Shown piece by piece: positions 1,390-49,881 of a stretch of 64,000 nucleotides of DNA; positions within the stretch are counted from its first letter, which is position 1, and each line of letters begins with the position of its first letter. Origin of the DNA: Nitrospirota bacterium (GTDB taxonomy: Bacteria > Nitrospirota > UBA9217); the NCBI GenBank assembly GCA_963749655.1, contig CAVVOB010000018.1, positions 1 to 64,000 on the forward strand, given 5' to 3'. A program made the position numbers and the translations under genes. Under the pieces are notes generated by a model, which was not told where the DNA came from, made no database searches, and was given only the letters and a program-made list of their open reading frames with translations.

Positions 1390-2764
1390 CAGACCCGTCC
1401 AAGATAGGATTTGAGTAATTGCAGGGGAAGCCTCAATCGGATAAAGTAGGTTTGTCGAAGACCAAAATATCCGAAGGAGGACATCCCCGTGAACAAGTTT
1501 AACAGCATTTTCGGACAGATTCTAGATATATTTCCGCAGCAGGATTTTGTGAGAGCGGTGCGGGAAACACGGGCAGAAAGAGGCGTAAAAGGGTTCAGTT
1601 GCTGGGGTCAGTTCGTTGCAATGGTGTTCTGTCAGTTGGGACAAGCACACTCGCTGCGGGAGATTTGCGGCGGATTGGCGACATGCCTAGGCAAGCTTAA
1701 GCACCTCGGGATAGATGTAGCGCCCAAACGTTCCACACTGGCCTATGCCAACGAGCATCGGCCGTGGCAGCTGTACCAGAAGGTCTTTTATCAGCTCCTG
1801 GCCAAGTGCCGGGTTCTGGCACACGGCAAGAAGCCGTTTCGGTTCAAGAACAAGCTGTTCAGCCTCGATGCCACGCTGATAGAACTTTGCATCACTTTGT
1901 TTGACTGGGCAAAGTATCGGCAGAAAAAAGGAGCTATCAAGCTTCACCTGCTGTTGGACCACGACGGCTATCTTCCGGTCTTCTGCAGTATGACCGAGGG
2001 GAATGTGCATGAAGTGAACATCGCGCATACGCTCACGTTCCCCAAAGGCTCCATCCTGGCAATTGATCGGGGTTATGTGGACTATGAGCAGTTTGCCCGA
2101 TGGACCGAGGCCGGAATTTTTTTTGTAACGAGAGAGAAGGATAACGCCGCTTTCAAGGTGATCGAAAAGAGAGCGGTACCCGACAACAGAAACATCATTA
2201 AAGACCAGCTCATTGAGCTGACAGGCCATTACTCAATCAGGAAATGCCCATATATCCTGCGGCGGGTAGAAGTATGGGACGCAGACAATGAGCGGGTGAT
2301 TGTTCTGTGGACAAATCATCTCACTTTTGGCGCTACGACCATCGCGAGCATATATAAAGACCGTTGGCAGATTGAGATATTTTTCAAGACGATCAAGCAG
2401 AATCTGAAGATCAAGACGTTTGTGGGAACGAGCCGGAATGCTTTGCTGACCCAGATTTGGACAGCATTAATCGCAATCCTGGTGTTGAAGTACTTGAAGT
2501 TCCGTTCCACACTCGGCTGGTCGTTGTCGAATTTGGTTGCCATGCTCCGGTATAACCTGTTCACGTATCGAGATTTATGGACATGGCTGGATAATCCGTT
2601 TGAAACACCGCCGATTGTACCGTCGGCAGAACAACTGGTAATGAGCTATCGGTAATTGGACAGCAGAACAAAGAACCTGAATCCGAGATGATGGAATTAC
2701 CTGTCTAAAAGCCTTGATTGGTAGGGGTGAGCTTCAGGAAATCAGATTATCTTGGACAGCAATG
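1390..2764 (+). mobile_element. IS4-family insertion sequence with 9-bp TSD CTGAAATTA
   Basis: Ends CAGACCCGTCCAAGATA and (reverse complement) CATTGCTGTCCAAGATA; CTGAAATTA repeated at 1381-1389 and 2765-2773. Confidence 0.9.
1489..2655 (+). CDS. IS4-family DDE transposase (DUF4372-type N-terminus)
   Basis: QFVAMVFCQLGQAHSLREI, SLDATLI, KLHLLLD, IDRGYVDY, YKDRWQIEIFFKTIKQNLKIKTFVGTS. Confidence 0.93.
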   Translation: MNKFNSIFGQILDIFPQQDFVRAVRETRAERGVKGFSCWGQFVAMVFCQLGQAHSLREICGGLATCLGKLKHLGIDVAPKRSTLAYANEHRPWQLYQKVFYQLLAKCRVLAHGKKPFRFKNKLFSLDATLIELCITLFDWAKYRQKKGAIKLHLLLDHDGYLPVFCSMTEGNVHEVNIAHTLTFPKGSILAIDRGYVDYEQFARWTEAGIFFVTREKDNAAFKVIEKRAVPDNRNIIKDQLIELTGHYSIRKCPYILRRVEVWDADNERVIVLWTNHLTFGATTIASIYKDRWQIEIFFKTIKQNLKIKTFVGTSRNALLTQIWTALIAILVLKYLKFRSTLGWSLSNLVAMLRYNLFTYRDLWTWLDNPFETPPIVPSAEQLVMSYR

Positions 2765-2886
2765 CTGAAATTATTATAATGCATGAATAAGGGCTGCTGA
2801 CCAGCAATGTATTTTGATTTTTTAAAAAGGCAAATTTCCATTTTTTGATCTGTGTCACGCAGTTGCCGGCGTTGCTTGGACTGCGC

Positions 2887-2925
2887 AAAAAAAGAGGCCC
2901 TCCCGAACAAGTCGCGAGGGCCTCT
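2887..2925 (-). terminator. Intrinsic terminator after the c7 cytochrome gene
   Basis: AGAGGCCCTC/GAGGGCCTCT stem followed by a T-tract on the minus strand. Confidence 0.7.
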
Positions 2926-2946
2926 CTGGTGCATCATGATTCTTCT

Positions 2947-3270
2947 TTACTTCTTGTGGCACTTGGCGCAGGAAGCTGCGTCCTTGACGCCGAACGCCTT
3001 GGTGCCGTTGTGGCAGGCACCGCAGTTCTTGCCGGCTTCCATGTCCTTCATGGTCAGCTTATCAGCACCCTTCTTCATCTTGAAGAGGCCGGACTGATGG
3101 CAATCTGCACACTTGTTGCCAGCCTTTGCATGCGCTCCCCCGTCGAACACGACCTTGCCGGCGCCGCCGCCTGCGAACTCAACGGTCTTGCCAGGGCCGA
3201 CCGCAAATACTGAAGCGGCGAACATCAACATCACTGCAATGGACAATGCGATTACGAGAAATTTCTTCAT
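2947..3270 (-). CDS. Periplasmic triheme c7-type cytochrome (paralogue 1)
   Basis: Signal peptide, three CxxCH motifs (CADCH, CGACH, CAKCH), GKNCGACHNGTKAF signature, GGAGGTG RBS upstream of the ATG at 3270. Confidence 0.9.
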   Translation of the reverse strand: MKKFLVIALSIAVMLMFAASVFAVGPGKTVEFAGGGAGKVVFDGGAHAKAGNKCADCHQSGLFKMKKGADKLTMKDMEAGKNCGACHNGTKAFGVKDAASCAKCHKK

Positions 3271-3537
3271 TATTGGTTTCACCTCCTTTCATGATGGGTT
3301 TGTACTCTTGATAGGAATCGTGACAGCAACAGGGAAAAAATTTCAGACCTGGCAGAGCAACAGACTTTTTGTTGCACTGTTATTTAACCGTATTTACAAA
3401 GAGTTATTTGATGTTCGGCTAGACTAATAGAAAAGAAGTAAATCTGTCAAGCAAGGAATGATTCGCGTAACACTTGATTTTCTGGAAGGGATATACTGGT
3501 TCATTCACTCTATTTCAGAATATTGCAGCATAGTGAC

Positions 3538-3572
3538 AAAAAAACCCTCACAGAAAATCTGCGAGGGTTTTT
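3538..3572 (-). terminator. Intrinsic terminator between the two c7 genes
   Basis: AAAAACCCTC...GAGGGTTTTT hairpin. Confidence 0.65.
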
Positions 3573-3588
3573 CACAACTATAAGAGCA

Positions 3589-3912
3589 TTACTTCTTGTG
3601 GCACTTGCCGCAATTTGCTGCGTCCTTTGCGCTGAAGGCCTTGGTGCCGTTGTGGCATGCACCGCAGAACTTGCCGTCGTTGATGTCCTTCATGGTGACT
3701 GCATCGCCGCCCTTCTTCATCTTGAAGAGACCGGACTGATGACAATCTGCGCACTTGAGACCCGCCTTGGCATGCACTCCACCGTCGAACACGACTTTGC
3801 CGGCGCCCTTTCCCTCGAACTCAACCGTCTTGCCGGAAGGAACTGCGAAGGCCGTCATCGCCATGGCGAACGTTACTACTACTACGAGAGCCAATACGAA
3901 AAGCTTTTTCAT
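3589..3912 (-). CDS. Periplasmic triheme c7-type cytochrome (paralogue 2)
   Basis: Signal peptide, CADCH/CGACH/CGKCH; closely similar to 2947..3270. Confidence 0.9.
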   Translation of the reverse strand: MKKLFVLALVVVVTFAMAMTAFAVPSGKTVEFEGKGAGKVVFDGGVHAKAGLKCADCHQSGLFKMKKGGDAVTMKDINDGKFCGACHNGTKAFSAKDAANCGKCHKK

Positions 3913-4015
3913 TTAGATTTCACCTCCTTCCATGTTGAAATGAATACTCAGTTGCCTGCATAGAGGGTATATGGGAAACCGCTTCTTTCACCACGAGGCC
4001 AAAAGGCCGGGCAAT

Positions 4016-5034
4016 CTAGAAAAACGCTTTCGGACTCCGGTACTCATGACAGGCTACGCAGTCCTTCTTCGCCGACGCTTCGGTGACTCTCCAGAGGTGC
4101 GGCTTGTGGCAAGTTCTGCACTGCATGTCCATATTGAGATGAAGCTTGTGTTTGCCGATCTTGGGGACTCCCGTGTGACACCGCAGGCAGTCCTCGTTCT
4201 TCGGCCTCACCTTGCCCGGTGTGTGCGGCTTGTGGCATTCGTAGCAGTAGAACTGCATGGGAGCGCCTTCGTTGAACACGATCTTCTTCGCCTTTTTGAT
4301 CGTTGCCGGATCGGGCGCAAAGAACTTCACGTCCATGGTAGCGTCTTCCTTCAGCTCCTTGCGGATGCTCTCGTCGATGCTGTGGCAGTAAAGACACTTT
4401 CTGCGTCCCGGTTTAAGGTCTTTGGTGCGGTCGGTATGGCAGTTGATGCAGGCGAGTCCGCCCATGCCTTCGCCATGCACTTCCTTGCCTTTATGACATT
4501 TGGTGCAGAATTTTTCGCGTCGGGAGGAATCGATGCAGGCCGCTTTTGTCCTGCTTCACTTCGCCGTGACATTCGGTGCATTCGATCTGTTCCATATAGA
4601 CATGCTTGGCATGGAACAGGGATTTGTTGATCCTCGCGGCCTTTCCCTTCGGTATGGCACTGATTGCAGTACTTCGAGCTCACGATCACCTGGCCCTTAT
4701 GCCGCTCGGGAACCTTGTTCGGCCGGTGCAAAACAAAACTGATCAGCAGCTGGTTCTGTTCCGGGATGGTCAGATGGTGACAGTCATGACAGTTGAGGCT
4801 CTTGTGCTCGCTCTTCGCCCAGCTGTCGTACGCCGGCTGCATCAAGTGACAGCCGACGCAGAACTTGGGGTTGTTCTGGGTGAAATCATAAAACTTGTAG
4901 GCGACATACCCGCCGCCGCCAACGATGATCAAAATGAGAGCCGAAATCAGTAGTTTGGCTTTGAGTGAAATCGGCTCTTTCAGGCGCTCAATGAGCTGTA
5001 TTACTTTGCTTTTAAGCCATTCGATCAACTTCAT
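4016..5034 (-). CDS. Membrane-anchored NapC/NirT-like multiheme cytochrome c (11 CxxCH; frameshifted in this assembly)
   Basis: N-terminal TM helix, then CVGCH, CHDCH, CNQCH, CTECH, CTKCH, CINCH, CLYCH, CYECH, CLRCH, CRTCH, CVACH read across frames. Confidence 0.8.
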
Positions 5035-5282: not shown

Positions 5283-6562
5283 TCACTCCTGCTGTGCCTC
5301 AGCAAATACCGGGAAGATTTTGCTTATGACCCAGAACAGAACAAAGGGCATGATGAAGATGCTGAGCGCCCCGCCGAGCCCTTCTTTGAAGGTCTCCCAG
5401 TTGTGCGGAATAATCGGCAGGTGATAATGCATGTACCCGGCAAAGGTGAGCGAGAACGCCTGGCCCGCCGATCACCACATTCCACCGCATCATGAACACG
5501 CCGAAGAGCACAAGCAGGACGGCGAGTATGGCGCGCCGGATCGTCAGGCCGGGGATCAGGAACAGGATGAGCGGTATGAGATTGCCGATGACGTACTGCA
5601 TGATGAATATATCATAGAAGTCCCGCTCGTAGATGACGCTCCGCAGCACATCCCAGGATTTGAGCGCGGTATAACCGCGGAAAATGAGATCGAGAAGCTC
5701 GAGGCTGATCGCGGCAACGAGGAAAAAAACGAGGTACTTGGCCGTCATCCGGATGTCATTTATCTCAACGCCTTTTATCTGTTCGGTCGAAGTGAATCGT
5801 CCGGCGCCGGACGTCCTCTTGCGTGCAGTCAGGAATTTTTTGATTTCCATGACGATGATATAGGTGAGCATGCAGAGTGCAATGCCCGAAACGACCGCGG
5901 ACATGATGAAGATCACCGGCATGAGCGGCGTCATCCAGAGTGCATTCGCCTTGACGGACCCGAAAATGAAGCCTGCGTATCCGTGCAGGAAGCACGCCAC
6001 GGGGATGCCGACGCCCGCCAGGATTTTGATCGCCTTCTCGTCACGGTGTAATGACTCCTCGCTTACATCATATACGCCGAGCGTGAGCGAGCAGAAAATA
6101 AAATACCGAAACCACTCGACGAGGGTCTTGTCCTGCTTCTCACGCAGTTTAAGTGAAACATCGACAAAATGTCTTCGGTACAGGAACCAGAGCTCCGACG
6201 CCACGATGGCACCGTAGGTAAAGAACACGACGCCGAATGCGGCAATGGCAGACGTGAAGTGGGGCGTCATGAAGATCTCGATGCCGCGGAACGGGAAACT
6301 GGAGGTGCAATACGATCGGCATGGGCGCGGCAAACAGCAGGGCAAAGGAGAACACGAGAGCAAAGCGCGCCATGTCCTTAAGCTGCTGAACGCCGAACAC
6401 ATGGTAGAGTGACGACAGAACAAAGGCACCTGCAACCAGACCGGTCATGAAAGGATACATTACGATCTGAACGCTCCAGTAGATGAATTCGTTCGGATAG
6501 GTGAACAGTTCCTTTACGGTCCATAATTCACCGTGGGCAAGCATTTCTCCGGTGGGTACCAT
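5283..6562 (-). CDS. NrfD/PsrC-family membrane subunit (frameshifted)
   Basis: YPFMTGLVAGAF, LHGYAGFIFGSVKA, TPLMPVIFIMSAVVSG, MRWNVVIGG; multiple TM helices; pieces in ORFs 6149..6562 and 5299..6435. Confidence 0.85.
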
Positions 6563-7416
6563 TAACGCACCTCCTTGTCGAGGCCTATATAGAAGACCTG
6601 GGGTTTCGTTCCATACTCTTCTTTCAGCACCCCGACACGCTCGGTCATGATGATTTTCGTTACCGGATCACTCGGGTCCTTGATGTTGCCGATCTGGCGG
6701 GCGCCGAAGGGGCAGGCCTGTACGCAGGCGGTCTTCAAACCCTGCGAGATGCGGTGATAGCAGAAATTGCATTTCTCGGCTGTATGATACACGGGATGGA
6801 AGAACCGCACGCCGTAGGGGCAGCCCATGATGCAGTAGCCGCACCCGATGCACCAGGTCCGGTCAACAAGCACCACGCCGTCCGGCGCCTGGTACGTCGC
6901 ACCAACGGGGCAGACCTGCACGCACGGCGGATTTTCGCACTGGTTGCAGAGCTTGGGAACGAAAAACGCCTTGTCGATGTCCTTTGCGTCTATGTTTTCG
7001 TATGTATGGGCCGACGGGGCGCCGTTCTCTTCCGGCTTCGCCAAAATATCCTTAGGACCTTCTTCCGGTCTGATGCCGAGGTCGATCTTTGAGGTGGTAA
7101 AGCCGTCCCGGGCGCCCTTGGGCGTGTCGGCATGGACCTTGCCGTCCTTCGTGATCACATACCGTTCGACCCAGGTCCTGGTCACGTTGGCATCATAGGG
7201 CACTTCGTTCTCGAGCTTGCAGGCCTTGACGCAGAGACCGCAGCCCACGCACTTGTAGGTGTCGACCAGGAACACCCAGCGGACCTTCGTAGTCTTGTCC
7301 GCGGCTTCCATGGCCATCAGTTTTTTGGGGTCGATGATCTCGAAGGCCGCAAGGGAAAGTGCGCCGCCGGCGATCCCGAGGGCCGTGTTTTTCAGAAAAT
7401 TTCTTCGTGATATCAT
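6562..7416 (-). CDS. Tat-exported 4Fe-4S dicluster protein (NrfC/DmsB-type)
   Basis: SRRNFLK twin-arginine signal; CVGCGLCVKAC, CNQCENPPCVQVCP, CIGCGYCIMGCP, CNFC...CVQACP. Confidence 0.9.
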   Translation of the reverse strand: MISRRNFLKNTALGIAGGALSLAAFEIIDPKKLMAMEAADKTTKVRWVFLVDTYKCVGCGLCVKACKLENEVPYDANVTRTWVERYVITKDGKVHADTPKGARDGFTTSKIDLGIRPEEGPKDILAKPEENGAPSAHTYENIDAKDIDKAFFVPKLCNQCENPPCVQVCPVGATYQAPDGVVLVDRTWCIGCGYCIMGCPYGVRFFHPVYHTAEKCNFCYHRISQGLKTACVQACPFGARQIGNIKDPSDPVTKIIMTERVGVLKEEYGTKPQVFYIGLDKEVR

Positions 7417-40079: not shown

Positions 40080-41390
<1,311 letters not shown>

Positions 41391-41394
41391 CTCA

Positions 41395-42027
41395 TTATTT
41401 TCCGGACACGCTGTTCACCAGGTCCGAAACTTCCTGTGCTTTACGCTCGATATCTTGAGCGCTGAATATTTCAGATATCAGAGCTATACCTGCAACTCCC
41501 GTCCCGATCACTTGACCAGCATTCCCACTTTTTATGCCACCAAGCCCAAATATTGGAATTGACACTCCACTCACTGCCGCTCTAAGTGATTCAACACCCA
41601 CCGGTGCGCCGAAATTAACTTTAGATGAAGTCTCGTAAACCGGTCCGTAGGTAATAAAATCAGCGCCGCCCTGTTCAGCTGCCCTCGCCTCTTCGAGATT
41701 GTGAGTCGATGCGCCGATCATGAGCCGGCTGCCGGCCACCTTCCTGGCCGCGTCCACGGGCATGCTGTCATGACCCAGGTGAACACCGTCGGCATCAACA
41801 ATCATCGCCACATCGAGGCGGTCATTGATGAACAATCGCGCCCCGAATTCCCTTGTCAGCGCCCGCATCTCCCGCGCCAGGGCCAGAAGTTCCCTCACCG
41901 GCAGGTCCTTCTCCCGCAGCTGGATCGCACGGACCCCGCCTTTCAGCGCAAGGCGAGCAGCGTCGGAAAGCGGCTGTTTGATCTGCTTCCGGTCGGTGAT
42001 GAGGTAGAGGTTGAAGTCGATAGCCAT
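41395..42027 (-). CDS. thiE: Thiamine-phosphate synthase
   Basis: LYLITD, QLREK, INDR, DGVHLG, GASTH, GPVYETSSK, LGGI. Confidence 0.95.
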   Translation of the reverse strand: MAIDFNLYLITDRKQIKQPLSDAARLALKGGVRAIQLREKDLPVRELLALAREMRALTREFGARLFINDRLDVAMIVDADGVHLGHDSMPVDAARKVAGSRLMIGASTHNLEEARAAEQGGADFITYGPVYETSSKVNFGAPVGVESLRAAVSGVSIPIFGLGGIKSGNAGQVIGTGVAGIALISEIFSAQDIERKAQEVSDLVNSVSGK

Positions 42028-42029
42028 CA

Positions 42030-42101
42030 GTGAGGAGTGAAACGTAAGGAGTAAGGAGAAAAACTTACTTCTCCCCTCACGCCTCACTCCTGACTCCTTA
42101 C
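42030..42101. repeat. Inverted heptamer arrays (same family as 39111)
   Basis: GTGAGGA GTGAAAC GTAAGGA GTAAGGA ... CCCTCAC GCCTCAC TCCTGAC TCCTTAC between thiG and thiE. Confidence 0.75.
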
Positions 42102-42111
42102 GGGTTAGTGC

Positions 42112-42891
42112 TCAGCTTCCGATAACCCCCTCGATCGGACTGCTGGCCGTTGCGTAGAGCTTTTTCGGAATCCGCCCTGCCCGGTATGCCAGCCTGCCTG
42201 CGAGCACGCCGAATTTCATCGCTTCGGCCATGGCGATCGGGTCCCGCGCGCCGGCAATGGCCGTGTTGAGAAGCACGGCATCGCACCCAAGCTCCATGGC
42301 AAGCGCTACATCCGATGCCGTGCCGACGCCGGCATCCACGACCACGGGGACCTTCACGGTTTCCATGATGATCAGGATGTTGTAGGGGTTCCTGATGCCG
42401 AGGCCTGATCCGATAGGCGCGGCAAGCGGCATTACGGCCGGGCAGCCGATGTCCACGAGCTTCTTTGCCATAATGGGGTCGTCGCTCGTGTACGGCAGCA
42501 CGATCAACCCCTCCTTGACGAGCACCTTTGCCGCCTCAAGGGTCGCCTCGTTGTCCGGGAACAATGTTTTCTGATCGCCGATGACTTCGAGCTTCACGAG
42601 CTTCGTAATGCCCGCTTCCGCAGCGAGCATGGCGGTTCGGATCGCGTCCTTCGCAGTGAAGCAGCCTGCCGTGTTCGGAAGGATCTTGTACTTTTTCGGA
42701 TCGATATAATCGAGCAGGTTTTCCTTGCTCTTGTCGATGATGTTCACCCGCCGCACCGACACGGTCACGACATCGGTGCCCGAGACCTCGATGGCCCTCT
42801 TCGTTTCGGCGAAATCCTTGTATTTGCCCGTACCGACCCAGAGGCGGGACTGAAATTCGATGCCGGCTATCGTAAGTTTGTTATCTGTCAT
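42112..42891 (-). CDS. thiG: Thiazole synthase
   Basis: [45 protein letters not shown]. Confidence 0.97.
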
Positions 42892-42916
42892 CGGCTTTGC
42901 TCCTTTGGTTAAAAGC

Positions 42917-43031
42917 AGCTGTCAGCGGTCAGCTGTCAGCAACATTCCGCAATCCAATTGCATTCCTGGCCCCTTGTTACTGGCTACTGGCCCCTCACTT
43001 TAATGATTCCGCATTCCGAATTCCGCATTCC
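42917..43031. repeat. Cluster of three heptamer-repeat types
   Basis: GCTGTCA/GCGGTCA x3, CTGGCYM-type, TTCCGCA/TTCCGAA x3 between thiS and thiG. Confidence 0.7.
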
Positions 43032-43232
43032 AAGGCCGCCCCCCATGAAAGCCACGACTTCGAGGGAATCATTTTCCTTAAGAGCTGTCTGCGGATAGTG
43101 GTCTTTTTTCACAATCGACTCGTTCAGCTCAACCGCAACGCGCTGGTGCTGAATCTGCAAGAGTTCCAGCAGACCGAGGATTGTAATATCGTCGGGGACT
43201 TTTTTTTTCTCGCCGTTCAACGTAATGTTCAT
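42984..43232 (-). CDS. thiS: Sulfur carrier ThiS with an extension after the Gly-Gly motif
   Basis: ITLNGE, VAVELN..IV, D.LEVVAFMGGG. Confidence 0.9.
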   Translation of the reverse strand: MNITLNGEKKKVPDDITILGLLELLQIQHQRVAVELNESIVKKDHYPQTALKENDSLEVVAFMGGGLGMRNSECGIIKVRGQ

Positions 43233-43251
43233 ACTCTTCCGTCATAAACGC

Positions 43252-43277
43252 AAAAAGCCGTATCCGGAGATACGGCT
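43252..43277 (-). terminator. Expression-platform terminator of the TPP riboswitch
   Basis: AGCCGTATC/GATACGGCT stem plus T5 on the minus strand between the aptamer and thiS. Confidence 0.75.
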
Positions 43278-43304
43278 CGAAAGGTTGCCAACCACATGTT
43301 CCTG

Positions 43305-43390
43305 CTCGCCTTCCCTACGCCGGCACTACCCGGATCAGGTTCCAAGGGTCGTCCTATAAGGACTCTCAGCCTTGCGGCTCCCCCGGCACT
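43305..43390 (-). ncRNA. TPP riboswitch
   Basis: Minus strand reads GGGGAGCC..GGCTGAGA...ACCCTTGGAACCTGATCCGGGTAGTGCCGGCGTAGGGAA, upstream of thiSGEC. Confidence 0.95.
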
Positions 43391-43650
43391 GTTGTCCTAC
43401 AATACGGCATGACCGATCTAAAAGTCAACGGTTTTGTTGAGTGATGTTGAGTGACTTCCGCTGCAAGAGGTGCCGCAGGACGCCGATTGAGCACAGTTAT
43501 TTTGGTATTTACAAAACAAAAAATGAAAATCATCTTGACAAAGAGTCAGGTAGTGCACTATGATTACATTGATTCCGCCATACAAACCCATCAAGAATTT
43601 CTTCTCGCGGGCCAAAAAGTCTTTTTTTCAATAAACGGAAAGGACCGCCC

Positions 43651-44906
43651 ATGAAAAACGTTCTTGTTTCCCTCGTCCTTCTCACTGTACCTCTTTTTTC
43701 CTTCCATTCGGCAACCGCAAAAGACAAACAAGACTGTGTGACGGCATCAAAGCTCTCCCGCGAGGCCGCCGAGATTTCGGCATCCAACCCCGGCTTCGCT
43801 GAGCTGAAAAGAAGCTCCGCCAGGCCATCGAACTGTGCGATGCCAGCGCTTCCCTCCATTACAACCTTGCCCTCGCAGCGTACCAGCTGACGCAGTATGG
43901 GACAGCGGAGACGGAGCTCGAACGCGCAATCGAATTGAACCCCTCCTTTGCCAGGGCGTACAATGCGCTCGCATCCCTCTACCCCCTTAAACCGGACGGG
44001 GATCTCAGCCGTGCCAAGGAACTTGCTGACAAGGCGATTGCCATCGAACCCGGAAACAAACAGTACCGGCAGACCCTTGAGATGCTGAACGCGAGCGTGG
44101 ATTTTCCTCCCCGCACGACGGCCAGCAAACCTGATGCGGTCGCAGTCGTGATCGGAAACAGGAGCTACCACAACGGGACCATCCCTTCCGTCTCCTATGC
44201 GGTCCAGGACGCTGTCGCCGTCAAAAAATATCTTACCGAGTCTCTGGGCTTCAAAGAGAACAACATCCTGTTCCTCACGAATGCATCCTACGTGGATTTC
44301 ATCAAGCTTTTCGGCGACGCCAATGACTACAAGGGCATCCTGTACAACCGGACGCGAAAGGACCGCTCGGACATCTTCATTTACTATTCCGGCCACGGCG
44401 TGCCCGATACCAACACGAAAAAACCCTATCTTGTTCCCTCGGACGCAGATCCTTCCATCATCAAAATTACCGGATATCCTCTCGAAACGTTCTACGGGAA
44501 CCTTGCAAAGCTCGAGAACGACAAAAAACCCAGGAGCATAACCATTGTGCTCGACGCCTGCTTCAGCGGCGGCTACAACAACGGCATGCTCATATCCAAT
44601 GCAAGCCCTCTTTTTATCGAAGCGTCCAACCCGGCGCTCACGCTCAAGGACGCGGTGGTCTTTTCCAGTTCGAAAGGCAACCAGATCAGTTCCTGGTACA
44701 TTGAACAGAACCACGGACTGTTCACGTACAACTTCCTCAAAACGCTCAAAAGCGACATCGAGCAGGGCAAACGGGGAATCACGGCAAAGGACATTGAAAA
44801 GGCTCTCCTGGATGCGGACGGCGTGAATGACCAGGCCTGGAGACTGTATAACCGCGAACAGGAACCTCAGGTCGTCGGCAATAAGAACATAATCCTGCTT
44901 CCTTGA
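43651..44906 (+). CDS. Secreted TPR + caspase-like (peptidase C14) protein; frameshifted in the TPR region
   Basis: Signal peptide at 43651; TPR-like NPSFARAYNALA; AVVIGNRSY, YYSGHG and LDACFSG catalytic dyad, HGLFTY, QEPQ. Confidence 0.85.
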
Positions 44907-44962
44907 CGTTTTCCGCGCCCACGCGCATGGAATACAATGTTTGGTAGAAAGGAGATCTTTCC

Positions 44963-45274
44963 ATGAAACACCTGCTTGCGGTGATTATCCTCCTGTCATT
45001 CGCTGCACCCGTGCACGCGCAAATGCCTTCCGGGTTCGAACCTGTGGAAAAACCGCTCATCGAAAAGCAGCAGCTCGAGGAAGACCTGTCCAGGGACATG
45101 CAAAAACAACAGAGTGAAACGGCGAAACCCGAAGAAAAGAAAGGCTCCAACTGGTGGAAGTGGGGCCTCGGTGTCCTGCTTGTCGGCGGGATCGCCGCGG
45201 CCGCCGGCGGCGGAGGCGGTGGCGGAGGAAGCAGCAGCGGAGGCGGCAATGGGACAATCAATGTCGGCTGGTAG
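44963..45274 (+). CDS. Small exported protein with a C-terminal TM helix, Gly linker and terminal GTINVGW
   Basis: Signal peptide; KKGSNWWKWGLGVLLVGGIAAAA; G8S3G3; GGAG RBS. Confidence 0.7.
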   Translation: MKHLLAVIILLSFAAPVHAQMPSGFEPVEKPLIEKQQLEEDLSRDMQKQQSETAKPEEKKGSNWWKWGLGVLLVGGIAAAAGGGGGGGGSSSGGGNGTINVGW

Positions 45275-45329
45275 CGGACACGATGATAAACGTGAAACGA
45301 CTGTAATACTGTGCGAGGGAATATTCCAA

Positions 45330-46628
45330 ATGATTAAAAAAATATTTCTTATCACCGCGCCGCTACTCCTGATTCTTTCGGGATGTGGCGGCAATCAATC
45401 AACACAGTCTGCGGATACGGGATCTATCGCATTCAGCGTCGAGTGGCGGGGAACCGCGGCTGCTTCCTCATCCCCGGGAATCTCAAAAGCTCAGCTCGAC
45501 TGCAACGCAAGCGGAATAGCCACGGTTGAAGCGGCTGTATATGACGGCCCCACCCTCGCCGCCTCAGGCGGCCCCTGGAGCTGCTCAGCGCATGCCGGGA
45601 GCATAACGAACGTCCCCCCTGCAAATAATTACAAGGTCACCATCACAGGCAAAGACGCGAGTGGAAACATGGCAGCCTACGGAGAATTGTCCGGCCTGTC
45701 CGTTCTGGGCGGACAGACAACGAACGCCGGGGCCATTTCCGTCTCTGCTATTGCCACGATTGCTACAGGTCAGAATAAACCTTATCACATAACCACAGAC
45801 GGAACCAATGTGTATTGGACCGAGTATGACAATGGCAACGGAGCCGTAAAAAAAACGGGGATTAATGGAGGCACCGTAACACCCTTTGCATCGGGGCTGA
45901 ATACTCCCAACGGCATTGCAGTCGATGCATCTAATGTTTATTGGACTGAACAGGGCGGCTCGAAAGTCAGTATGGTGTCGCTAAACGGAGGCACCCCGAC
46001 GACCCTTGCCTCCTATCCCACCTATCCCACGATGTACAATCCAATGGGAATTGCCGTAGACTCCACAGATGTCTATTGGATAACCAGCATCCAGCCTACA
46101 GGCGCTTTATGGAAGGTGCCGATTAGCGGCGGCACCGCGACAACCATCGTCACGGGGCTGAATAATCCCTACAGCATTGCCGTCGATTCCACGAGTGTAT
46201 ATTGGACAGAGCAGAATGGCGGCACGGTAAAGAAGGCCTCAAAAGACGGTATGACCGTGACCACCCTTGCATCAGGACAGAGCGCTCCCTACGAACTTGC
46301 CATAGATACAACCAATGTCTATTGGGGCCTGTTTTCCGGCGGGGGCGTGGCAAAGGTAGGAATAGGCGGTACCGGAGGTACGGTGACGACCCTTGCAGCA
46401 GGAGGGACTCCCAATATTTATGGCGCTGGAATTGCCGTCGATGCAACGAATGTTTACTGGGTTGAGAGCACAGCAAGTACCGGAACGATAAAAAAGGTGG
46501 GGATAAACGGGGGCACAGTGACGACCCTTGCTCCGAATATGAATTTTTCCTTTGGACTTGCTGCGGATGCCACCAGCGTCTATTGGACCGAGCAGAATGT
46601 AGGAAACATAAAGAAGGTGTTTAAGTAG
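45330..46628 (+). CDS. Lipoprotein with a beta-sandwich-like N-domain and a 7-bladed YWTD-like beta-propeller
   Basis: Lipobox LSGC; seven (I/L)A(V/I)D.T.VYW.E-type repeats. Confidence 0.8.
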   Translation: MIKKIFLITAPLLLILSGCGGNQSTQSADTGSIAFSVEWRGTAAASSSPGISKAQLDCNASGIATVEAAVYDGPTLAASGGPWSCSAHAGSITNVPPANNYKVTITGKDASGNMAAYGELSGLSVLGGQTTNAGAISVSAIATIATGQNKPYHITTDGTNVYWTEYDNGNGAVKKTGINGGTVTPFASGLNTPNGIAVDASNVYWTEQGGSKVSMVSLNGGTPTTLASYPTYPTMYNPMGIAVDSTDVYWITSIQPTGALWKVPISGGTATTIVTGLNNPYSIAVDSTSVYWTEQNGGTVKKASKDGMTVTTLASGQSAPYELAIDTTNVYWGLFSGGGVAKVGIGGTGGTVTTLAAGGTPNIYGAGIAVDATNVYWVESTASTGTIKKVGINGGTVTTLAPNMNFSFGLAADATSVYWTEQNVGNIKKVFK

Positions 46629-46710
46629 AACGCGTGGATTTGCGCGCGTCAGTTCATTTTCTCCGAACCAGTCGAAACGGCGTAACATCGTGCACCCTCC
46701 AAAAGGAACT

Positions 46711-46749
46711 AAAACGACCGCAGGATAAAATCCTGCGGTCGTTTTTTTT
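46711..46749. terminator. Bidirectional intrinsic terminator
   Basis: AAAACGACCGCAGGAT/ATCCTGCGGTCGTTTT stem between convergent genes. Confidence 0.85.
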
Positions 46750-46797
46750 GCCCAGCCTCAAACACTTCCCTCGCACCGGCCGTTCAGGCGCTTCGGA

Positions 46798-47394
46798 TCA
46801 CCCGTTCAGCAGCCTCACCACGGCCATTCCGTCATCGTAATAATCGACGATATTGAGCGCGCCGAAGGATTGGTCGATCCGAAACAGGTTCATCAGGTCC
46901 ATGCCGAGAGCGTCCGCGAGGATGACCCTGTTCACTCCTCCGTGCAGCAGCATGGCGACTTCCCGGTCGTTATGGGAGTCTACCAGGCGCTTGACCACGG
47001 GCAGTATCCGGTCCTGCACATCCATCAGGTTCTCGCCTCCCGGCGGGCGAAAATTGAGGAGGTCCGCGCGCCATAATGCGTAGTCCCGCGGGAACCGGTC
47101 CTTTATCTCGTCGGCAGTAAGGCCCTCCCAGCTGCCTACACTCCGCTCCCGGAGCTCGCGCAGGGACGTTACAGGCGCACTGCATTTCTCAGCGATAATC
47201 CGTGCGCCTTTTACTGAACGGATAAGATCGCTGGAGTAAACGGCGGCGATTTTTTTGCCCGAGAGGAGGTCTGCAAGGCGGTGCATCTGGTGAAGGCCGT
47301 TCTCGGTGATGTCGACATCGATGTGGCCGTTATACCGTCTTTCCGGACCGTTGGCTACTTCACCATGCCGCATCAGGTAGACGGTGGTCGGCAT
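46798..47394 (-). CDS. cobC: Alpha-ribazole phosphatase (histidine phosphatase)
   Basis: RHG, SSDL.R, ELRE...G.WEG, HGGVNR; follows cobU-cobS. Confidence 0.85.
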   Translation of the reverse strand: MPTTVYLMRHGEVANGPERRYNGHIDVDITENGLHQMHRLADLLSGKKIAAVYSSDLIRSVKGARIIAEKCSAPVTSLRELRERSVGSWEGLTADEIKDRFPRDYALWRADLLNFRPPGGENLMDVQDRILPVVKRLVDSHNDREVAMLLHGGVNRVILADALGMDLMNLFRIDQSFGALNIVDYYDDGMAVVRLLNG

Positions 47395-47397
47395 GCG

Positions 47398-48168
47398 CTA
47401 CGCCCCGTTCGCGAGAGTGACAAAAACGAGGAAGACCAGCACTTCATTGAGCTCGTTCATCGCCCCGATAGCATCGCCGGTTACGCCGCCCAGTTTGCGG
47501 ATCAGATACCGTTTTCCGGTGTAGGTCATCAGCGCGACGCTGCACAGCAGGACCGCGAAAAGGACCACGGTCCGGATGTCGATCCGCAGGATCACAAAGG
47601 CTGATAGCCCCGCGGCCAGAAGGGAAACCGCGACCAGTCCGCTGGAACGCAGATGCCCGACGAAGGCCTTGCCCATGCCGTTGTCGCGGCCGTAGTCGGC
47701 ATTGAACACCATGAATGCCTGGGACCACCTGCCCAGCACCGGAGCAGTCAAAAGCGCAGGTACCCGGTCGCCTTCGAACAGATTATTGAGGCAGAGATAT
47801 TTCATGAACAGGACGCAGACGATGCCGACTGCTCCGGCAGTGCCGATCCTGCTGTCCTTCATAATGGCGAGACGCGTCTCGTGGCTGCGCCCGCCCATGA
47901 GTCCGTCAAGCGTGTCGGCCAGGCCGTCGATATGCAGTGCCCGCGTGATCACCAGCGAAAGAATAACGAGCAGGAATGTGGCGACCGTCTGGGGCAGCGC
48001 GATCAGGGCAAAAAGTTTGTCTGCATTGACCAGAAGAAACCCTATCAAAAAACCGACGAAGGGGAAGTAGACAATAGATTTGGCCATGTCGCCTTCCTCG
48101 ATTATATGCTTCTTATTCACGGTAAAGATAGTTAAAAACTGCAAGGCGGTCGTAAAATTTTTAATCAT
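47398..48168 (-). CDS. cobS: Adenosylcobinamide-GDP ribazoletransferase
   Basis: ALQFLT, LHIDGLADTLDG, IMKDSRIG, GGVTGDAIGA..E. Confidence 0.95.
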   Translation of the reverse strand: MIKNFTTALQFLTIFTVNKKHIIEEGDMAKSIVYFPFVGFLIGFLLVNADKLFALIALPQTVATFLLVILSLVITRALHIDGLADTLDGLMGGRSHETRLAIMKDSRIGTAGAVGIVCVLFMKYLCLNNLFEGDRVPALLTAPVLGRWSQAFMVFNADYGRDNGMGKAFVGHLRSSGLVAVSLLAAGLSAFVILRIDIRTVVLFAVLLCSVALMTYTGKRYLIRKLGGVTGDAIGAMNELNEVLVFLVFVTLANGA

Positions 48169-48208
48169 TCTTCCTCGTCCTTCACTCTTTCCAGCATGCG
48201 CTGTTTTC

Positions 48209-48733
48209 TTATTTGATCTTCACCGGGATGCCTGATGCCGTAAAGTAGACCTCATCGGCGGCCTGCGCCACCTTCTGGTTCACCGTACCGGCGGCATCGC
48301 GGAATTTCCTGGCCAAGGGGTTGTCGGGCACGATGCCGAGTCCGACCTCATTGGAAACGACGATGCAGACGCCCCGGAACTCCCGGATGGCCTTCACCAG
48401 CGCCTCGGTGCGGCCAAGGAGGGGACCGTCGCCGTCGGTGTGCGCCATGACATTGCTCAACCAGAGCGTCAGGCAGTCGAGGAGGACGACCTCGTATCTG
48501 CCGCTCAGCTTTTGCAGCAGTTCATCTACGGCCAGGGGCTCTTCATAGGTGTCCCAGGCAGCGCCGCGGTCCTTGCGGTGCTTGTCGATCCGCGCCGCCA
48601 TCTCGGCGTCGAGGGCCTGCGCGGTGGCGAGATAGGCCCGCTTCCCGGGGATGCCCGTTGCCAGTTTCTCTGCAAAGGCTGACTTTCCGGACCGGGCCCC
48701 GCCCGTAATGAAATAAATTTTTTCTGCCATCAT
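48209..48733 (-). CDS. cobU: Bifunctional cobinamide kinase / cobinamide-phosphate guanylyltransferase
   Basis: GGARSGKS.FAE, DCLTLWLSN, VSNEVGLGIVP, FRD.AG.VNQ. Confidence 0.95.
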   Translation of the reverse strand: MMAEKIYFITGGARSGKSAFAEKLATGIPGKRAYLATAQALDAEMAARIDKHRKDRGAAWDTYEEPLAVDELLQKLSGRYEVVLLDCLTLWLSNVMAHTDGDGPLLGRTEALVKAIREFRGVCIVVSNEVGLGIVPDNPLARKFRDAAGTVNQKVAQAADEVYFTASGIPVKIK

Positions 48734-49164
48734 TCACTTTCACGCAAGACAAAAAACCCCACCACAATAAAACGGGCAGGGGTCAAACGCCGGAGTTTCA
48801 GCATCAAATTGAGCGGGCAAGGGGTCTTGGACCCGCAGTCCCCCTCGACCCAATCGGATAATAAAACAAAGAGTTCGGCAAAGTCAAGCGTTCATTTTCG
48901 GACGCTCGGCGAAGCCTTCCGGCAAATGGCGTCATGATTTCCCCATCTCTGTGTTCAAGCTCATCGAGCATCTTCCCAAGCCGTTTTTCACGAGTTGTAT
49001 TCATTTTCACGCGCTGACCCGGCAATAAACCAACTTGACCTATTCATCCAAATAAGATATTATTTCTCGGTTCTTTCAGCATGATCTTCCCTGGTCCCTG
49101 ATCATCCTTGCCGTTCAACTTCTGCCGTTGCAGAGACTGACATTCCCCCTCCAATGAGGACACC

Positions 49165-49881
49165 ATGACCGTGCCACGAGACATCGACTCTTTAAAGGTC
49201 AGCATCATCATTCCCTGTTTTAACGAGAAACAGACCATCGAATCCCTGATTTCCGCCGTTCGATCGTCTCCTGTCAAGCGCCAGGAAATCATTATCGTTG
49301 ATGATTGCTCGACAGATGGAACGCAGGACGTTCTCAAAAACACGATACTCCCCTTGGTCCATACCATCATCTACCACGATAAAAATCAGGGGAAAGGGGC
49401 TGCCCTGCGAACAGGCATCGCCGCGGCCACAGGTGATATCGTGATCATTCAAGACGCCGACCTTGAATATGATCCGAATGAATATCACCTTTTGCTCGAG
49501 CCCTTTCTTCAGGGAAAGGCGGATGTGGTATTCGGTTCGCGCTTCATGGGCGGCAGACCCCACCGCGTGGTTTATTACTGGCATTCCCTGGGGAACTGGC
49601 TGCTTACGACGCTCTCGAATATGTTCACCAACATCAATCTTACGGATATGGAGACATGCTATAAGGCCTTTCGACGGGAAATCATACAGTCGATTCGCAT
49701 CGAAGAGGACCGCTTCGGCTTTGAGCCGGAAATAACCGCGAAAGTGGCAAAAATGAATTGCAGAATCTATGAGGTCGGTATTTCCTACTATGGGCGCACG
49801 TACGCTGAAGGGAAGAAGACCGGCTGGAAGGACGGCTTTCGGGCACTGTACGGAATTCTGAAATATAATCTATTCAGATAG
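49165..49881 (+). CDS. GT2 glycosyltransferase (DPM1-like)
   Basis: [47 protein letters not shown]. Confidence 0.93.

Follow-up and report, generated by a model that had tools for sequence, protein, structure and literature searches.

Type V pili offer the closest described parallel to the genes considered here: their maturation reportedly removes an N-terminal strand from the pilin, and the C-terminal strand of a partner is said to take its place. According to PMC9046445, the lipoprotein precursors of these pili go to the outer membrane and need gingipain, a clan CD cysteine protease, for their maturation, while in the chaperone-usher systems treated there a second protein donates, in trans, the beta-strand that an Ig-like domain lacks or can have replaced. 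Within a 64,000-nucleotide stretch of a Nitrospirota genome (positions 1 to 64,000 of contig CAVVOB010000018.1, assembly GCA_963749655.1; henceforth the window) we analysed three co-oriented plus-strand genes, at 43651-46628, that specify in order a caspase homologue with tetratricopeptide repeats (TPR), a small exported protein with a tryptophan-ended tail, and a lipoprotein. Taken with their counterparts in other genomes, these genes are a conserved three-gene cassette of predicted cell-envelope proteins, made up of two constant partners and one modular lipoprotein. A full-text literature search, with supplements outside its scope, found no description of the cassette, in agreement with the first-pass annotation of the window, which had known of none.

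The cassette resembles the type V systems in that it encodes a lipoprotein together with a clan CD protease and a partner whose conserved C-terminal strand is similar to the first strand of the lipoprotein. However, the protease of the cassette belongs to family C14 rather than C25, is Sec-exported with TPR, and is encoded in the cassette itself; the strand partner is a non-pilin protein of ~100 aa; the handle is a single sandwich joined to variable binding domains; neither a conserved basic cleavage site nor membership by sequence was found; and the hosts are labelled Nitrospirota, Nitrospinota and 'Proteobacteria', not Bacteroidota. Of the features that mark a type V pilin, the lipoprotein precursor is present, whereas the pilin family and fold, an Arg/Lys site and a C-terminal donor strand of its own are absent, so that the cassette may work like a type V system while not being a member of that family. 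Chaperone-usher systems differ in another way, as the cassette has no PapD-like chaperone or usher, includes a protease, and has a lipoprotein N-terminal domain (N-domain) that is modelled as complete with its own first strand (strand A). Signals of the sortase type (LPXTG, PEP-CTERM, GlyGly-CTERM) likewise unite a conserved C-terminal region holding a hydrophobic segment with a dedicated, adjoining cysteine protease, but in the cassette the order is reversed (hydrophobic segment, Gly linker, then the motif at the very end, with no basic tail) and the motif sits on a small dedicated protein instead of many cargo proteins; the combination that defines a sortase or exosortase sorting signal (motif, transmembrane helix, basic cluster and multiple cargo) was not found in the small protein.

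Several lines of evidence indicate that the three genes belong together. A motif scan over one genome per species returned 16 loci, seven of which proved to be chance matches in unrelated proteins, and nine of which (L001, L002, L004, L007, L008, L009, L011, L013 and L015) are genuine family loci. The TPR-C14 peptidase lies directly upstream of the small gene in eight of the nine (it is cut by the contig end in L008 and L009, and absent from L007), and in all eight loci with enough DNA the next gene downstream of the small gene specifies a lipoprotein that shares the N-domain, L015 standing outside this count because its contig ends 433 nt after the small gene. The co-occurrence of the three families, on which the first-pass annotation had staked its proposal, is thus borne out. 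Moreover, one metagenome-assembled genome (MAG) has four separate cassettes of three genes apiece, and another has two; the labels of the MAGs concerned are Nitrospirota, Nitrospiria, Nitrospinota and 'Proteobacteria'. Toxin-antitoxin-type genes (AbiEii, an MNT-type nucleotidyltransferase, and PIN with Phd/YefM) are inserted between the caspase and small genes in three loci (L001 7388-8008, L004 7442-7744 and L015 768-1477), and no insertion parts the small gene from the lipoprotein gene in any locus. The retention of both the terminal tryptophan and the gene order across genomes is more than chance.

The one locus that lacks a peptidase is informative as to which partners are most closely bound. 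In L007, from a Nitrospinota MAG, a 256-aa exported protein (6371-7141, plus strand) with an unannotated N-terminal domain ends with the same hydrophobic segment, Gly/Ser linker and tail (TGNISVSW). The next gene specifies an N-domain lipoprotein with a Kelch head and with V in place of W at the end of strand A, and no caspase was found within ~6 kb. As L007 keeps the pair of tail protein and lipoprotein without a caspase, the tightest link in the cassette is that between the tail and the N-domain. The neighbours of this locus include an LPP20-domain protein.

The lipoprotein of the window (432 aa; 45330-46628, plus strand) carries the lipobox LSGC (Cys19), followed by a tether rich in S, G and D, an N-terminal beta-sandwich (~45384-45752), and seven YWTD-like propeller repeats, marked by VYW at intervals of ~42 aa and matching Ldl_recept_b and DUF5050. 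AlphaFold2 (AF2) modelled the N-domain as a seven-strand sandwich with a pLDDT (predicted local distance difference test) of 85.4 from a 52-row alignment, in which GSIAFSVEWR forms the first strand (pLDDT ~97) and a low-confidence loop of ~24 residues comes next; strand A, TGSIAFSVEW, is encoded at 45417-45446. The architecture proposed from the initial reading, a lipoprotein whose first strand DTGSIAFSVEW precedes a sandwich and a seven-blade propeller, therefore stands. No Pfam or NCBIfam model covers the N-domain, a word-indexed search recovered the query alone, comparison of its profile with PDB sequences gave nothing meaningful, and Foldseek found no PDB match to its model at E <= 1e-3, the best fold matches being generic transthyretin/CnaB-like sandwiches such as a Bacteroides DUF4876 protein (1.2e-3) and rhamnogalacturonan lyase. 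An exhaustive HMMER search with residues 1-150 recovered 932 representative proteins (50% identity clusters) at E <= 1e-3, 413 of them at E <= 1e-10. The domain is nearly always N-terminal, in proteins of 132 to 2713 residues, and a lipobox is recognisable in 124 of the best 150 representatives as well as in all eight locus homologues of the lipoprotein. Among 129 parsable sequences the strand A region has the consensus S-S-[DE]-T-G-S-I-A-F-S-V-E-W.

What follows the N-domain varies from locus to locus. The C-terminal head is a YWTD-type propeller in the window and L002, Kelch in L007, DUF5122 with a lactonase-like propeller in L008, MopE repeats with Fib_succ_major (FISUMP) in L001, L004, L009 and L013, and LamG with Fib_succ_major in L011. 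A domain that stays constant beside two constant partners, while the heads vary, is what a shared interaction handle would look like, and we infer that the N-domain is the handle by which both constant partners act on the lipoprotein. Directly downstream of the FISUMP-ended lipoprotein of L001 is a reverse transcriptase gene (RVT_1; 3968-4918, minus strand). The idea that FISUMP-ended homologues are targets of a diversity-generating retroelement was rejected, as no template/variable repeat of the 3' 261 nt was found within the locus for the five FISUMP genes.

The small exported protein (103 aa; 44963-45274, plus strand, with AGGAG 9 nt upstream of its ATG) consists of a signal peptide, a FEPVEK motif, a charged linker, SNWWKW with a Gly/Ala-rich hydrophobic segment (45146-45205), a G/S linker and the terminal strand NGTINVGW (45248-45271); the stretch SNWWKWGLGVLLVGGIAAAA is followed by G8 S3 G3 and then by that strand. 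Its family comprises 74 clusters at E <= 0.01 (90% identity clusters). The C-terminal residue is W in 67 of the 74 members and Y in two, and in a 40-row family alignment W103 is invariant. In the same alignment the conserved parts keep one order: the signal peptide comes first, F[ED]PVE (with E29 conserved at 90% or more) stands directly after the signal-peptidase site, and then come a charged linker that varies, SNWWKW-x-LG...GGIAAAAGGGGGGG, a G/S/T/P linker that also varies, and last the terminal strand. With a family consensus of T-G-[ST]-[VI]-[TS]-V-[SG]-W, or in looser form TG[ST]-x-x-V-x-W, the terminal peptide is conserved as the first-pass annotation had supposed.

No Pfam family matches the small protein, and its profile found nothing meaningful among PDB sequences (the matches were to (G4S)n linkers of single-chain variable fragments). 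Searches of the ESM Atlas returned only unnamed 'hypothetical protein' clusters. The sole curated model to touch the small protein is NCBIfam NF058595 ('invert_tail', lipo-invert putative C-terminal anchoring domain), which matches 29 of 40 family members at E <= 1 and scores below its 37-bit cut-off throughout (14.4 bits for the window protein, 19.9 for the best member). The L013 member aligns collinearly with this model, residues 11-97 to positions 4-90 of 113, although the model runs ~25 positions beyond the end of the small protein; a full-text search found no paper on 'lipo-invert'. No longer proteins carrying the tail were recovered by our search, which is weak evidence on this point, and the L007 protein is the one fused form. 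Since the N-domain lacks a Pfam or NCBIfam model and the tryptophan-ended family is unannotated, both are undescribed building blocks of diderm envelopes.

Where the tail of the small protein lies bears on any proposal for its function. The export signal, linker and tail that had been annotated were all recovered, but the hydrophobicity of the annotated 'TM helix' turned out to be no more than marginal: a simple sum on the Hessa scale gives a family median of +3.4 kcal/mol, and the segment is Gly/Ala-rich. In the 40-row alignment basic residues precede the segment and none follow it. Given this marginal hydrophobicity and the lack of basic residues behind the segment, the tail need not be cytoplasmic and may well be periplasmic; accordingly, we do not regard the predicted segment as a secure inner-membrane stop-transfer helix.

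The peptidase gene is broken in the window. Frame 1 from the ATG at 43651 specifies a signal peptide and ~50 further residues before a stop at 43890 (a 79-aa open reading frame, 43651-43890, plus strand, with a Sec signal peptide, a first helix with a conserved D-C, and a premature stop), and the TPR repeats and Peptidase_C14 domain lie in a different frame, at 43803-44906 (plus strand). L002, from a Nitrospirota MAG, has an intact orthologue of 421 aa (76% protein identity), to whose N-terminus the 5' fragment aligns, and DNA alignment with this reference places the frameshift at a tandem duplication, GCTGA GCTGA (43798-43807, plus strand), that adds 5 bases. Of the signal-peptide TPR-caspase with intact dyad first annotated here, the dyad was upheld, whereas the single intact gene was not, because the duplication splits the signal peptide from the body. 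The 5-bp duplication is either a true inactivating mutation, making this a pseudogene, or an assembly error. As the caspase gene is frameshifted, the system may be inactive in this genome, and the step performed by the peptidase has probably been lost here or is supplied elsewhere.

Other than its reading frame, the peptidase has the hallmarks of family C14. The body matches Peptidase_C14 (PF00656) at E 2.9e-14 and 53.8 bits against a gathering cut-off of 21.4, TPR families match as well (repeats at approximately residues 5-95 of this frame), and the catalytic His (in YSGHG, codon at 44394) and Cys (in DACFSG, codon at 44559) are kept in all seven aligned orthologues. Its AF2 model (pLDDT 80.1) has a caspase fold, the best PDB matches by Foldseek being the MALT1 paracaspase (E 9.9e-10), fungal and plant metacaspases, and Geobacter GSU0716. 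Scores against NCBIfam NF047832 (caspase_w_EACC1, the EACC1-associated type) were 66.7 bits for the window and 66.8 for L002, both below the cut-off of 140. In common with metacaspases, orthocaspases and MALT1, the cassette peptidase has a His-Cys dyad, a caspase-hemoglobinase fold and a D-x-C motif. We take the D-x-C motif and pocket residues to fit specificity for a basic P1 residue, as the D-A-C motif and the nearest folds (MALT1 and metacaspases) together suggest. Orthocaspases cleave after basic residues, according to PMC6426788. TPR fusions and N-terminal signal or transmembrane segments are common among the prokaryotic caspase homologues covered in a 2012 survey (PMC3501461), but neither that survey nor the other literature searches yielded a description of the fixed partnership with this small protein and this lipoprotein domain.

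Among the loci the peptidase occurs as TPR-C14 (420-441 aa) or as TPR-2xCARDB-C14 (~685 aa); the long form, with two CARDB domains between TPR and C14, is found at L001 8435-10480, L011 7234-9300 and L015 1494-3557. All cassette peptidases have a conserved D-C right after the predicted signal-peptidase site and a second Cys ~30 residues on (LC-x-x-SA), which suggests that the two conserved cysteines (window 43651-43760, and orthologues) form a periplasmic disulfide.

The tail and strand A resemble one another. The tail consensus TG[ST][VI][TS]V[SG]W is similar to the strand A consensus TGSIAFSVEW, so the likeness reported from the window alone holds at the level of family consensus, and both stand at the end of a common layout of basic residues, hydrophobic segment, G/S linker and a TG[ST] strand ending in W. 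Alignment by hhalign places the tail region of the small protein and the N-terminus of the lipoprotein collinearly (probability 15.5%, P 0.0017). At so low a probability we rejected homology of the two, and we treat the likeness as putative mimicry or convergence, a resemblance and not proven homology. All three cassette proteins have signal peptides, which places them in the same compartment.

We consider it possible, with a probability of roughly 0.3, that these genes specify a modular cassette for display or processing at the envelope, with the tail mimicking strand A and the protease licensing a step. The small protein would be anchored by its Gly/Ala-rich hydrophobic segment and would present its free C-terminus as a strand (TG[ST]-V-x-V-x-W-COOH) at the end of a flexible poly-Gly/Ser linker; this strand would copy the layout of the lipoprotein N-terminus, namely hydrophobic segment, G/S tether and TGSIAFSVEW. 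This tail might dock on the N-domain as a beta-strand, either replacing strand A or pairing beside it, whereby the binding head would become tethered via the small protein. The peptidase, probably basic-residue-specific, would license or reverse docking by cutting at the flexible loop after strand A or at the Lys-rich linker of the small protein. More doubtful is the full strand-exchange version, in which a periplasmic caspase would open the N-terminal sandwich of the lipoprotein, the ~100-aa protein would supply a W-tipped replacement strand, and the interchangeable heads (propellers, lectin-like domains) would be re-anchored or handed over at the cell envelope. Predictions of complexes among the caspase body, the N-domain and the mature small protein gave ipSAE values of 0.03 and 0.01 against a mark of 0.32; these scores, obtained without controls and with an uncertain partner fold, count neither for nor against binding.

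A number of observations weigh against tail docking licensed by the peptidase. Should the hydrophobic segment turn out to be a true stop-transfer anchor, the tail would face the cytoplasm, out of reach of the lipoprotein. Generic composition could account for the weak hhalign similarity, and strand A exceeds the tail by two residues. With regard to cleavage, there is no position-conserved K/R or D/E site in the tether or after strand A: the residue that follows the strand A tryptophan varies (Q in 22, R in 18, E in 16, P in 16 and K in 14 of 129 sequences), and the tethers are nearly free of K/R (1.8%). In 101 of 116 sequences (87%) the 17-residue low-confidence loop after strand A does have one or more K/R, but this is about what a 10% background would give and so makes the loop permissive rather than enriched. 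The N-domain is found in 932 clusters at 50% identity and the small protein in 74 at 90%, figures from searches that are not comparable, and for many N-domain lipoproteins a dedicated small partner may not be needed. Finally, in the window the caspase gene is broken while the genes for the small protein and the lipoprotein are intact.

Apart from the broken caspase gene, the observation made by the first-pass annotation is real and considerably strengthened by the comparative data. Its interpretation, protease-driven strand exchange, is partly supported, in that the comparisons of gene co-occurrence and of terminal-peptide conservation across genomes left the idea standing. Bacterial caspase homologues are abundant and almost none has a known substrate; the fixed partnership in these genomes puts forward two concrete candidates for the role of substrate or partner. 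Were strand mimicry to hold, protease-triggered strand exchange would reach beyond type V pili, and it would explain how uncultivated Nitrospirota and their relatives mount variable surface binding proteins. Strand exchange proper would make clan CD-driven exchange an ancient and widespread principle rather than a speciality of Bacteroidota, and an exported bacterial C14 peptidase would have a function assigned for the first time. Should the idea of mimicry fail, the cassette still marks a conserved envelope module.

Of the alternatives, the least improbable, though we hold it to be doubtful, is that the tail is read by the peptidase itself. The TPR would bind the free ...V-x-W-COOH end, the small protein would be a membrane adaptor, regulator or pseudo-substrate, and the lipoprotein, with its tail-like strand A, would be a substrate that is shed or matured. 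Motifs recognised by carboxylate-binding modules typically show an invariant terminal residue at a free C-terminus, as the tail does; all seven orthologues have TPR fused to the peptidase, and the caspase adjoins the small gene in eight of the nine loci. Other three-TPR modules bind C-terminal peptides, and the cassette TPR show weak sequence similarity to PEX5, SGTA and Hop, which bind such peptides; however, such matches amount to generic consensus-TPR similarity. In addition, L007 keeps its tail protein and lipoprotein with no caspase within ~6 kb, insertions part the caspase from the small gene in three loci, and docking on the TPR alone leaves unexplained why the tail copies strand A and its linker layout.

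It is unlikely, in our estimation, that the small protein is instead a pro-protein whose Lys-rich linker is cut by the peptidase, freeing a Gly-zipper C-terminal peptide that is membrane-active or oligomerising, with the lipoprotein as receptor, immunity or accessory factor. A K-rich linker does precede SNWWKW (K66 is at least 90% conserved), which would suit the cleavage after basic residues given for orthocaspases in PMC6426788, and eight of 40 members match the class IIb bacteriocins lactobin A/cerein 7B through the GxxxG-rich segment. These matches are nevertheless weak (best E 0.024) and driven by composition, an invariant terminal W and a constant lipoprotein N-domain go unexplained, and variable binding heads fit display better. 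Equally hard to credit is that the three genes are co-transcribed but specify functionally independent envelope proteins, the likeness of tail to strand A being generic beta-strand composition. The low hhalign probability (15.5%), the lack of a conserved cleavage site, and a caspase gene broken beside intact neighbours would all agree with this. Yet the genes stand in this order again in MAGs with the labels Nitrospirota, Nitrospiria, Nitrospinota and 'Proteobacteria', with four cassettes in one MAG, and a constant N-domain with variable heads is what would be expected of a shared interaction handle.

That the cassette is a true type V pilus homologue, its lipoproteins polymerising by strand exchange after cleavage with the small protein as anchor subunit, is very improbable: lipoprotein precursors neighbour a clan CD protease and P. 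gingivalis FimA (4q98) is among the weak Foldseek matches to the N-domain (rank 5, E 3.4e-3, TMq 0.49), but no FimA/Mfa Pfam family matches at E <= 0.1, no PDB fold matches at E <= 1e-3, the handle is one sandwich and not a two-domain pilin, no Arg/Lys site is conserved after strand A, and the lipoproteins end in unrelated globular domains (propellers, Kelch, LamG, FISUMP) with no conserved donor strand.

The setting of the cassette agrees in most respects with what had been annotated: the three co-oriented genes lie between thi and cob genes and are closed by one strong terminator. On the thi side are thiC, thiE, thiG and thiS (40080-43232, minus strand; the thiamine operon), and on the other cobC, cobS and cobU (46798-48733, minus strand; cobalamin genes). 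The intrinsic terminator (46711-46749, plus strand) comprises a perfect 16-bp hairpin (46711-46745) followed by T8, and is also usable by the convergent cobC. No cobalamin riboswitch was found at gathering score in 42800-49300. The claim that the cassette had been 'inserted' did not hold in the sense of a recent event: the thi-cassette-cob arrangement of the window recurs in two other Nitrospirota genomes, in full in L002 and on its cob side in L008, so that the position is inherited within the lineage. In L002, ~3.4 kb (1558-4859) that is absent from the window lies between the lipoprotein gene and cobC, and holds only unconvincing open reading frames.

A candidate sigma-70-like promoter, TTGACA-18-TATGAT (43535-43564, plus strand), lies ~87 nt 5' of the first ATG of the cassette and matches the consensus at 11 of 12 positions, a consensus match only. 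A thiamine pyrophosphate (TPP) riboswitch (43294-43394, minus strand; 70.3 bits) lies upstream of thiS, and thus shares one intergenic region with the candidate promoter, in divergent orientation. A terminator-like hairpin (43255-43278) is found near this riboswitch, upstream of thiS.

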